A program made the translations under genes and the position numbers. DNA of 4,001 nucleotides, from contig JAVZDR010000043.1 in assembly GCA_038873795.1 (NCBI GenBank), forward strand, positions 1 through 4,001, in the 5' to 3' direction. The DNA comes from Candidatus Micrarchaeaceae archaeon. Lineage in GTDB: Archaea; Micrarchaeota; Micrarchaeia; Micrarchaeales; CABMGC01. Position 1 is the stretch's first letter. Every line of letters begins with the position of its first letter. Of the stretch, positions 1,134 through 2,978 are shown piece by piece. The notes beneath the pieces are model-generated. The model had not been told where the DNA came from. It made no database searches and was given only the letters and a program-made list of their open reading frames with translations.

Positions 1134-1709
1134 ATGGAGGAGAGCGAAAAACACGAGGAATTGGAGGAATATGCAATTGTGCTCGACTATCTACCTACTG
1201 GCAAGTCTTCTTCTGCAAGGAGCATGCCAATGGCCCAGCTACTAGGCGAGGCCAAATTCACACTCCTCGAGGCTGTTTCAAAAGAGAATGTTGAGATCAA
1301 GATAGGCGAGAGAGTCTACATAGGCAAGGGTGAGCGTGACAAGATATCGCTGATAAAGGGCAGGATAAGCTATGATTACCTTACAGAGGGATCCAAGAAG
1401 GAGCTGCCCAGTGCGATCATGGCGATAATAAAAAGCAATGAGAAGAAATTTGTCGAGATTTTCAACAAGGCGGGCCCTCTCAACATAAGGGAGCATACCC
1501 TTGAGCTTCTTCCAGGGGTGGGCAAGCGCCACCTTGAGCAGATACTCAAGGCGAGGGAGGAAAAGCCATTTGAGAGCTTTGCGGACATAGCAGCGAGAGT
1601 CCCGCTTCTCCAGGACCCGGTCAAGCTTCTCACAGAAAGGGTATTGTCTGAGCTCAAGGAGGAGAGCAGATTCCACATACTTACCAGGCCTTACTTCAGA
1701 AGGTACTAG
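1134..1709 (+). CDS. DUF655 family putative RNA/nucleic-acid-binding protein (OB-fold plus helix-hairpin-helix)
   Basis: Motifs EEYAIVLDYLPTG, AQLLGEAKFTLLE, IGERVYIGKGERDKI, FNKAGPLNIREHTLELLPGVGKR (HhH) and PFESFADI are characteristic of DUF655. SD GGTGGTG at 1124-1130 favours ATG 1134 over TTG 1119. Conserved position after rpoF. Confidence 0.92.
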   Translation: MEESEKHEELEEYAIVLDYLPTGKSSSARSMPMAQLLGEAKFTLLEAVSKENVEIKIGERVYIGKGERDKISLIKGRISYDYLTEGSKKELPSAIMAIIKSNEKKFVEIFNKAGPLNIREHTLELLPGVGKRHLEQILKAREEKPFESFADIAARVPLLQDPVKLLTERVLSELKEESRFHILTRPYFRRY

Positions 1710-1996
1710 CCAACCTTTTCAAGGTATTTCTGAGGCACTATGAGCTTTTTTGTCGTAGATCTAGAAAGCGCAACGCTCACCACATATGATGAGCCGCGCC
1801 TCTCTGTTATAGTGCCAACCCTGCCCCTAAAGCGCAGGTTTGGTATGTCATTTGAGGTGCCGCCTGGCGCTATCGCAACCCTCTCGCCTATTGCGAACTC
1901 TTTGATCTGCTTTGCTATGCTCATCCTTGAGAGGCGTCTGTGCCTCGAGATGTTCCTTGACCTGCCTGTAAGTAGGCCGTGGGAACGTTTGCTCAT
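1706..1996 (-). CDS. rpl21e: 50S ribosomal protein L21e (eL21)
   Basis: 96-aa basic protein MSKRSHGLLTGRSR...FAIGERVAI...PNLRFRGRVGTITERRGSSYVVSV...KKLIVPQKYL, matching the eL21 pattern (S.G....R, F..G..V.I, RF.GR.G.I...RG..Y.V, K.LIV.P.HL-like). GGTG SD on the minus strand at 2005-2002. Confidence 0.9.
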   Translation of the reverse strand: MSKRSHGLLTGRSRNISRHRRLSRMSIAKQIKEFAIGERVAIAPGGTSNDIPNLRFRGRVGTITERRGSSYVVSVALSRSTTKKLIVPQKYLEKVG

Positions 1997-2018
1997 AAAA
2001 ACACCAGCAAGCAGAAGG

Positions 2019-2050
2019 ATATTGCTAGCAATATTTATAAATACTTTTCA
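2019..2050. promoter_or_regulatory. Bidirectional promoter: palindromic TATA box overlapping a 16-bp perfect palindrome
   Basis: ATATTGCTAGCAATAT (2019-2034) is its own reverse complement, as is TATTTATAAATA (2032-2043; core TTTATAAA at 2034-2041). A purine-rich GAAAAG (minus strand 2049-2044) gives a BRE-like element for rpl21e. The element lies between the divergent starts at 1996 (-) and 2073 (+). Confidence 0.7.
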
Positions 2051-2072
2051 TGACCATCTAATTCTTGATTTC

Positions 2073-2354
2073 ATGGCTAAAAATGCTCGCATCGATTTCA
2101 AAGTCGAGAATATAGTTGCAAGCGCTGACCTTGGGATAGATTTGGATTTGTATGCAATAGCTAGGGCATCAACTGATGTCGACTACGAGCCTGAGCAGTT
2201 TCCAGGAGCAATATGCAAGATACACGAACCCAAGGCCGCTGTGCTTCTTTTCAAGAATGGCAAAATCATCTGCACCGGCGCAAAGACAGAAGCCGAGATA
2301 AGGAAGGTAATAGATCAGGTAGTAAAGATAGTGAAAAACTACACCATATCTTAG
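2073..2354 (+). CDS. Single-repeat (half) TATA-box-binding-protein-like protein, 93 aa
   Basis: MAKNARIDFKVENIVASADLGIDLDLYAIARASTDVDYEPEQFPGAICKIHEPKAAVLLFKNGKIICTGAKTEAEIRKVIDQVVKIVKNYTIS is exactly one TBP repeat (ENIVAS, LDL..IA, YEPEQFPG, PK...LLF..GK..CTGAK, C-terminal helix). The upstream part of track ORF 1740-2354 is antisense rpl21e plus intergenic DNA with no TBP motifs. Confidence 0.88.
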   Translation: MAKNARIDFKVENIVASADLGIDLDLYAIARASTDVDYEPEQFPGAICKIHEPKAAVLLFKNGKIICTGAKTEAEIRKVIDQVVKIVKNYTIS

Positions 2355-2363
2355 CGCACGGCA

Positions 2364-2978
2364 CTATGCTGACCTTATCTTCTTGACCGCTGTCTTATAG
2401 ACTATATAAATGGCTATTGCAAATGCGGCTATTGCTGTCGATGTAATTGCCATGTTGCTTGTTGAAAGGGCATAGAAGCCAAAGAGCACAAGAACTGTGT
2501 CCCAGATCGCAGAACCAAGCATAGAATAGCCATAGAACTTCTTCCACGGCATGAGCGCAAATCCAGCTGGAAAGTTTATCAGGCCCCTTACCAAAGGTAT
2601 GAGCCTTGATATGAAGACAGCAAATGGACCATTCTTTGCAAACCATGCATCGAAGGCATCGAGCTGCTCCCTTCTTATGTGGAAGACCGAAAGGTGCCTG
2701 TAGACAATATCCTTGCCTATGAAATAAGCAATGTAGTAGTTTATGGCCATCCCTATGAAGCTACTTATGTATGTGACTGCCAGCGCAATGTACAAGTCTA
2801 GAGAGCCCTTGGCGGCGAAGTAGCCAATTGTTGGCAGCACGACCTCGCTTGGCACTGGCATCGATGCACTTTCCAGTGTCATAAGAATGAGTATGGCATA
2901 GTAGCCATAGGCACTGACGAGGCTTGCTATTGCAGCTGAAGTCAGGTGGAGCAATGAATAGAGGTCAAAAAATGGCAT
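2364..2978 (-). CDS. dedA: DedA family (SNARE-associated/VTT domain) membrane protein
   Basis: Hydrophobic 204-aa protein with the DedA motifs GYYAILILMTLESASMPVPSEVVLP, G....YYI, WFAKNG.FAVFISRLIPLVRGLINFPAG..M..KF...S..G..IW. Confidence 0.9.
   Translation of the reverse strand: MPFFDLYSLLHLTSAAIASLVSAYGYYAILILMTLESASMPVPSEVVLPTIGYFAAKGSLDLYIALAVTYISSFIGMAINYYIAYFIGKDIVYRHLSVFHIRREQLDAFDAWFAKNGPFAVFISRLIPLVRGLINFPAGFALMPWKKFYGYSMLGSAIWDTVLVLFGFYALSTSNMAITSTAIAAFAIAIYIVYKTAVKKIRSA

Follow-up and report, generated by a model that had tools for sequence, protein, structure and literature searches.

We describe a gene from a Candidatus Micrarchaeaceae archaeon that encodes a TATA-binding protein (TBP) of a single lobe, where two are expected. 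The gene, called type A, is found at positions 2073 to 2354 of the forward strand of the window, by which we mean the whole stretch of 4,001 nucleotides of contig JAVZDR010000043.1 that was analysed, and its 93-aa product is called P0001. We consider it likely that this protein is the true TBP of the organism in one-lobe form and that it works as a dimer, a pair of type A subunits (A2) being sufficient, while pairs that include a paralogue, type B, are possible in the same genome. This genome, hereafter G000, comprises 600,028 bases in 55 contigs (the window is on contig C43) and is 94.3% complete.

The coding sequence contains one complete TBP lobe and ends with a TAG stop at 2352-2354. P0001 matched the Pfam profile PF00352 at 102 bits (cut-off 22.9), residues 8-90 covering positions 1-85 of the 85 of the profile. 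Its C-terminus lies 3 residues past the end of the repeat, and PF00352 is its only Pfam domain. A sequence-only reading of this stretch, made by a model without database searches, had claimed exactly one TBP repeat, and named N13 (in ENIVAS), F43 (in YEPEQFPG), F60 (in LLFKNGK) and the motif T68-G69-A70-K71; the repeat and all these residues are in place. No second TBP repeat was found on either side of P0001, so that the tandem pair of repeats that defines a TBP is absent. On the 3′ side there is no room for one, because the stop of the convergent DedA/VTT gene is only 9 bases away, as the same reading had seen. To judge by its sequence, P0001 is a TBP homologue that departs from the defining two-repeat architecture of the family.

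Against the TBPs of the PDB, P0001 gave an E value of 9e-40, with 45-50% identity to either lobe of solved archaeal TBPs. Scores were 71.1 bits for the N lobe and 66.5 bits for the C lobe of the Methanocaldococcus jannaschii protein, and 65.4 and 69.0 bits respectively for those of Pyrococcus woesei, meaning that P0001 appears about equally distant from N and C lobes. Its named DNA-contact residues have identical counterparts at the aligned positions of 2z8u and 1pcz, in either lobe. A total of 502 proteins of 51-163 aa matched P0001, the best 120 of the 502 being 93-150 aa long and 62-100% identical. To go by the organisms from which its close homologues come, the lineage belongs to Micrarchaeota/Micrarchaeia. 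In an alignment of 107 sequences drawn from these proteins (A1), N13, V15, F43, F60, I66 and T68 were invariant, as was the stretch Y38-P44 (Y38-E-P-E-Q-F-P44). We take the six single residues to be DNA-contact positions (the Asn and Val of strand S1, the two intercalating Phe, and the Ile/Val and Thr of strand S5), and the acidic stirrup YEPEQFPG is presumably the site contacted by transcription factor B (TFB) or TFIIB.

A scan of G000 with PF00352 at E≤1 produced two matches, on contigs C43 and C18, each of one repeat, and no two-repeat TBP. The match on C18 is type B (114 aa, 91 bits, positions 1420-1764 of locus L002), a gene flanked by a thermosome gene and a glycosyltransferase gene and unlinked to type A. 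Over 90 residues, types A and B share 53% identity. Type B retains the same DNA-contact and stirrup residues, and has a signature of its own throughout its clade (DLH, AIFR, IILF, KLICTG). A TTTATATT element is present about 37 bases 5′ of it; in this region, at L002 1379-1393, the TATA-like element reads aaaagTTTATATT, with an A-rich run just upstream. G000 also encodes a single, ordinary TFB (366 aa; L092 162-1262, contig C47) that comprises a zinc ribbon and two cyclin repeats. Ahead of the zinc ribbon, its N-terminus is extended by some 65 residues in which Lys, Glu and Ala are abundant.

The scan was extended to 41 genomes of the order, representing 3 families and 37 genera (two unpublished genomes, G038 and G209, enter the tallies of this sample and of the wider one below, and no conclusion depends on either). 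In 41 of 41, only single-repeat TBP frames were found, and none of the 41 had a full-length two-repeat TBP. Two copies were present in 31 genomes, on different contigs or at least 17 kb apart, and one copy in 9; the last genome, G019, had a full repeat and a partial repeat at a contig end. Even at E≤10, exactly one TBP match was obtained in five genomes: G018 and G058, which are one contig each, G003 (three contigs, 97% complete), G044 and G101. Since there is exactly one repeat in these five, a homodimer is their only route to a saddle. More generally, where type A is the sole copy, the dimer must be a homodimer; in G000, A2, A-B and B2 are all possible and we do not rank them. The sequence-only reading had proposed to search this genome and its relatives for a canonical TBP or a second half-TBP: the order yielded none of the former, and the search brought out type B. 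Its suggestion that the protein might be one half of a split TBP may therefore apply in G000, which has a second, unlinked half-TBP.

In a wider sample of 201 Micrarchaeia genomes at least 85% complete, 196 had a PF00352 match, and 58 of the 201 had exactly one repeat (the count of 58 was made by hand from the genome table). Families are numbered f1, f2 and so on. For the 36 f1 genomes of this sample, one repeat match was found in 22, at least 2 in 13, and none in 1. Eight of the 22 one-match genomes could be placed in the repeat tree described below; all carry type A, and they are scattered through the type-A tree. Sixty further loci were added to bring the locus set to 91. A single-repeat gene was found at 70 of them (f1, f2, f3, f7, f10-f12, f14-f18, f20, f22 and f24) and a two-repeat gene at 20 (f4, f5, f6, f8, f9, f13 and f19, plus one in f3), the remaining locus being that of G019. 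The single-lobe feature extends over the lineage and looks essential, and is no oddity of one locus.

Some members of this set deserve separate mention. Genomes of f7 have three single-lobe TBP genes each, as seen in G117 (contig C1, L053-L055) and G135; in the latter, a distance of about 1 kb separates two of the three on contig C62 (704-943 and 1973-2215). The sole two-repeat TBP seen in f3, L086 (G154:C43:2733-3251), comes from a genome with four matches and groups on long branches with TBPs from outside Micrarchaeia; it is probably a contamination or a transfer. L067 (G129:C15, f18) is a 182-aa open frame with a TBP lobe only at residues 95-182, and its first 94 residues may be a real extension or a mere upstream open frame. 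In a global library, 5,517 representatives matched at E≤0.001. Among the best 150, 5 were short single-stretch proteins, which gives no estimate of frequency as ranking by total score favours two-lobe proteins. The best global matches also included chains with 3-4 TBP repeats (P0241, P0242, P0243 and P0312, of 376, 272, 702 and 329 aa respectively).

The type A gene is embedded in a conserved gene order in f1: Rpo4, DUF655, L21e (−), type A (+), DedA (−), Pelota. L21e was found beside type A in 23 of 29 related loci (one of them from the unpublished G038), and DedA in 17 of 29. Across f1, type A proteins are 65-96% identical, and syntenic neighbours 37-73% outside the same genus. Comparison of type A between G000 and the same-genus genome G001 gave 45 synonymous and 6 non-synonymous differences, i.e. 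a non-synonymous divergence (dN) of 0.028 and a ratio to synonymous divergence (dN/dS) of ∼0.01, with dS saturated. For five neighbouring genes, dN/dS was 0.03-0.08. No gene of this neighbourhood is as well conserved as type A. At 69 single-repeat loci of relatives, the stop falls at a median of 2 residues, and a maximum of 18, after the end of the repeat match; because its position is kept in all these loci, chance truncation is ruled out. Contigs from two public sequencing runs span the gene and its stop without any indel (X1 1700-2489, X2 1700-2356), and differ from the window by six substitutions inside the type A gene, all synonymous. As independent support for the stop they are weak, for one run may be the source sample of the window. 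No RNA run was listed as containing the stretch, which carries no information on expression. The sequence-only reading had proposed to look for syntenic orthologues of about 90 aa and to measure dN/dS, and such orthologues, under selection, exist. Among the observations that it had named as speaking against it were an absence of purifying selection and a stop that reads do not support, and neither was made.

Pairing was examined by modelling. Two copies of type A, modelled with the 107-sequence alignment, reached an interface score (ipSAE) of 0.67 (0.64, 0.67 and 0.68 in individual runs), compared with 0.00 for the best of 3 controls. The per-residue confidence (pLDDT) of the partner was at least 87, and at least 93% of the contacts were common to the runs. 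Of 30 proteins solved as pairs of one chain, 20 attained the mark applied here, as did 1 of 23 proteins solved as single chains; these calibration counts apply only roughly to the present model, for which we supplied our own alignment. The modelled interface is symmetric: residues 6-20 run antiparallel to residues 6-20 of the partner (S1-S1′), and residues 66-67, 73, 76-77, 80 and 84 complete it. In the model these are the S1-S1′ and helix H2 contacts that join the two lobes of TBP. P0121, a natural fusion of two type A repeats, was predicted to form a TBP saddle (pLDDT 91.3, predicted TM-score (pTM) 0.83), with a Foldseek TMq of 0.79-0.85 to solved TBPs. The idea of a stand-alone half-TBP that needs to pair, put forward in the sequence-only reading, is supported by the lack of a two-repeat TBP in G000 and the order, by the five genomes with exactly one repeat and by the predicted homodimer. 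Two other roles that it had offered, a TBP/TFB antagonist and a factor for bidirectional promoters, found no support.

We propose the following mechanism. Two type A subunits would pair through strand S1 and helix H2 into a ten-stranded saddle, which would bind and bend TATA DNA and present two identical acidic stirrups (YEPEQFPG) to a single TFB. The type A homodimer would be sufficient alone; in G000, type B may also pair, with type A or with itself, to give an alternative TBP. Owing to its symmetry, the A2 dimer would give a promoter no direction, which would have to be supplied by TFB through its contact with the TFB-recognition element (BRE). According to Bell and colleagues (1999), the direction of the archaeal initiation complex is reportedly set by TFB on the BRE, so that a fully symmetric TBP should be workable in principle.

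The promoters of G000 were inspected with crude calls of open reading frames (ORFs), which provided 513 upstream regions. TATA-like hexamers peak 38-26 bases 5′ of the ATGs. An expectation-maximisation (EM) motif search over the 513 regions did not converge on a TATA motif; in a scan anchored on TTTATAAA, run without a control scan, 63 of the 513 had at least 7 of 8 matches. The flanks of these sites are A-rich upstream and T-rich downstream, i.e. nearly mirror-symmetric. For the type A gene itself, the TATA element claimed by the sequence-only reading corresponds to a TATA-like palindrome, TTTATAAA, read from the sequence at 2034-2041 (+). It begins 39 bases 5′ of the ATG and is probably the promoter of the gene. 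If the usual archaeal spacing to the start site, as we assume it, applies here, the half-TBP mRNA would have a leader of about 9 bases.

The history of the two types was approached with a tree of 148 repeats. The type B clade (SH-aLRT support 99) has members from both f1 and f3, therefore the A/B duplication predates the f1-f3 split. In the type-A tree, genomes with A alone are interspersed with A+B genomes, a pattern indicating that B was lost more than once; type B thus seems to be dispensable. Four rare two-repeat proteins of 195-196 aa, P0121-P0124, are 74-80% identical to P0001. Their own two lobes are 81-87% identical to each other, and both nest within the f1 type-A clade. In P0121-P0123, the linker consists of a monomer-like C-terminal tail followed by a monomer N-terminus, with AKR or AR past the join; P0122 was found on a 138-kb contig. 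P0121-P0124 are recent tandem A-A duplication-fusions. At the G019 locus mentioned above (L014, contig C39, minus strand, at the contig end), an open frame comprises the final 37 residues of one type-A repeat, then a linker of 20 residues and a complete second repeat. A single base distinguishes the two copies of a 99-base segment there, and the first copy is cut by the contig end. Either this is a tandem A-A fusion of very recent date, or it was produced by assembly at the repeat.

Identity between lobes was 44-70% in 19 two-repeat genes from Micrarchaeia genomes, and 39-58% in nine outgroup two-repeat proteins: the two-repeat TBPs of other Micrarchaeia families have unusually similar lobes. 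In the 148-row tree, a branch with SH-aLRT 99 divides all Micrarchaeia repeats from the outgroup, with its N and C clades. An approximately unbiased (AU) test was done on a 76-row subset, from which L086, P0121-P0136 (the P-numbered Micrarchaeia two-repeat proteins), P0179, P0182, P0184 and most single-repeat rows were left out (L029, from an unpublished genome, is in neither tree). A clade of all N repeats, outgroup and Micrarchaeia together, was not rejected (p 0.265, log-likelihood difference 17.75). The single-lobe genes may have arisen by loss of a lobe, or the two-lobe genes of the other families may be re-fusions or have been homogenised by gene conversion.

Several points weigh against our reading of type A as the dimeric TBP of the organism. 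G000 is a draft of 55 contigs from which a gene could be missing, and the argument from absence depends on the closed relatives. Type B is under strong purifying selection (dN/dS ∼0.02 between G000 and G001), and at least 2 repeats are present in all but one of the 55 f3 genomes of the wider sample that have a match. An A-B heterodimer could be the main form in G000, since B is kept under selection, has its own signature, and f3 genomes keep at least two repeats. The homodimer score may reflect the memory that the model has of the two-lobe TBP fold, because solved TBPs resemble the modelled arrangement. Finally, no clear one-sided BRE signal appeared in the crude anchored scan of the 513 regions. 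A rival reading is that A and B are the two lobes of one obligate, heterodimeric TBP in G000, neither of them working alone. Such a split would account for the selection acting on both genes between G000 and G001, for the clade-specific signature of each (DLH, AIFR and KLICTG in B), for a duplication older than the f1-f3 split and for the retention of repeats in f3. We nevertheless hold it to be unlikely. No more than one repeat was found in 22 of the 36 f1 genomes, some of them single-contig genomes searched at E≤10; type A is what all eight that could be placed in the tree possess, and genomes with A alone occur at scattered places in the type-A tree. In addition, natural A-A fusions exist, the A-A model passes its controls, and A and B, 53% identical, share the same DNA-contact and stirrup residues, unlike the specialised N and C lobes of eukaryotes.

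Type A could also be an accessory TBP-domain protein, a regulator or competitor like TbpA or the Thermococcales proteins discussed below, with the real general factor unassembled or unrecognised. Single TBP-domain proteins beside full-length TBPs are indeed documented in the relevant sections of PMC3597702, and single-lobe versions are mentioned in PMC7221094. We find this improbable given that 41 of 41 genomes of the order have no full-length TBP, that five genomes, two of them single-contig, have no further repeat at E≤10, and that none of the neighbouring genes is as conserved as type A; moreover the Pfam score of P0001 is as high as that of canonical lobes, whereas the Thermococcales proteins are reported, where PMC3597702 treats them, as far diverged from TBP. 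A shade less credible still is a monomer with another role, for instance nucleic-acid binding like the N-domain of RNase HIII, TBP function having been lost or replaced in a reduced symbiont. The genome is strongly reduced, to 600 kb, and PMC3597702 cites single TBP-fold domains at work in RNase HIII and DNA glycosylases; but a normal TFB is retained, TATA-like elements are most frequent where promoters would be expected relative to the ATGs of the crude calls, the stirrup motif and both Phe, which a non-TBP role would not need, are invariant, and no catalytic domain is fused to the lobe. As to an artefact, whether a gene call cut short, an assembly error or the fragment of a recent pseudogene, the draft state of G000 speaks for it, and it has next to no probability in face of the conserved synteny, the stop kept in 69 loci, the indel-free contigs of two runs with six strain-level variants all synonymous, and the dN/dS of ∼0.01. 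As far as the present data reach, it is refuted.

The other features of the window are as follows. On the 5′ side, the gene for ribosomal protein L21e (1706-1996, minus strand; PF01157, 37.6 bits) is the divergent neighbour of type A and serves as synteny anchor. On the 3′ side, a gene for a DedA/VTT-domain membrane protein (2364-2978, minus strand; PF09335, 72.6 bits) is convergent with it. An automatic call proposes a 204-aa ORF at 1740-2354, and the sequence-only reading had rightly warned that its length, close to that of a full TBP, is misleading. Its TBP match is confined to residues 119-201. The part outside the gene (1740-2072, plus strand) has no TBP match, and its first 111 residues are antisense to L21e. 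In G001, the open frame has just 103 aa and contains the same 93-aa protein with the same ending. The 204-aa ORF was rejected as a gene: it is an artefact, being antisense to L21e, with an extension that is not conserved in G001. Farther upstream, the region 771-1709 holds Rpo4/RpoF (PF03874) directly followed by a DUF655 protein with a helix-hairpin-helix motif, and this pair beside L21e is conserved across the family. Rpo4 is preceded by a TATA-like element, aaaagTTATAAAT (726-741), with an A-rich run just upstream, and also has a Shine-Dalgarno-like site, GGAGGTG.

TBP is the standard example of a protein that originated when one domain was duplicated and the copies fused. A one-lobe homodimer doing the job of TBP has so far been a thought experiment; to judge by sequence, all transcription in an entire archaeal order, and in several families besides, appears to depend on a one-lobe subunit, with closed genomes that have a single copy and natural re-fused forms in close relatives. 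On balance we favour a general proposal, with less assurance than for type A itself: in much of Micrarchaeia, the two-lobe TBP, otherwise universal in archaea and eukaryotes, would have been replaced by a one-lobe symmetric homodimer, a living counterpart of the proposed pre-duplication ancestor. The lineage would move between one gene, a diverged A+B pair and fresh A-A fusions, and direction would be left to TFB alone. The idea of an ancestral homodimer becomes directly testable with a natural 93-aa protein, which is also well suited to studying how promoter direction is established when a symmetric TBP works with one TFB. If the proposal is true, the duplication-fusion step of TBP is open to study with natural intermediates. 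For annotation, the warning is that a TBP match of about 100 aa in a DPANN genome is a real gene rather than a fragment, and that half-TBPs can be masked by longer automatic ORF calls, the 204-aa ORF here being an example.

No description of a lineage with a one-lobe TBP as its sole TBP was found in open-access and bioRxiv full texts, a scope that does not extend to subscription journals and supplements. In the portions that concern TBP, two comparative papers on DPANN list it merely as present (PMC8407392, PMC8204110), Ravarani et al. (2020, PMC7221094) give single-lobe versions in archaea one sentence, and Adachi et al. (2016, PMC4910066) find M. jannaschii TBP the most internally symmetric of those examined, "Micrarchae" being absent from the available text. 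The closest precedent is the monopartite class of Brindefalk et al. (2013, PMC3597702), whose pertinent sections describe such TBP-domain proteins in Halobacteria (TbpA) and Thermococcales, with a full-length TBP alongside every listed case. P0001 shares the single domain of this class and not the coexistence with a full-length TBP. Like the halobacterial TbpA, as presented there, it consists of one TBP domain and groups with the lobes of true TBPs; TbpA coexists with several full-length TBPs and is reported as non-essential, whereas the order of type A has none. The Thermococcales proteins (Table 3 of the same paper) resemble it in being stand-alone, with one TBP-fold domain in about 91-96 aa, but according to that account they are far diverged from, and coexist with, the TBP of their own genome, while P0001 is a close relative of TBP and the only kind present. 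Single TBP-fold domains also function in RNase HIII and DNA glycosylases, as the same source notes; the architecture of RNase HIII, a TBP-fold joined to an RNase H domain, is not that of P0001, in which Pfam detects no fused catalytic domain.

Within Micrarchaeia, the two-repeat TBPs of other families and P0121-P0124 have the same lineage-specific lobe sequence as type A, but fused in one chain. Compared with the canonical archaeal TBPs (2z8u of M. jannaschii; 1pcz, 1ais and 1d3u of P. woesei; 1mp9 of Sulfolobus acidocaldarius), P0001 has the same full-length Pfam repeat, keeps the Asn/Val, two Phe and Ile/Thr positions, and carries a YEPEQFPG identical to the C-lobe stirrup of P. woesei (1ais), and the predicted A2 interface is the one that joins the two lobes of TBP. 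It differs from them in having one lobe and 93 aa instead of about 180-190 aa, so that its saddle must be intermolecular; the A2 saddle would be exactly symmetric, with two equivalent predicted sites for TFB.
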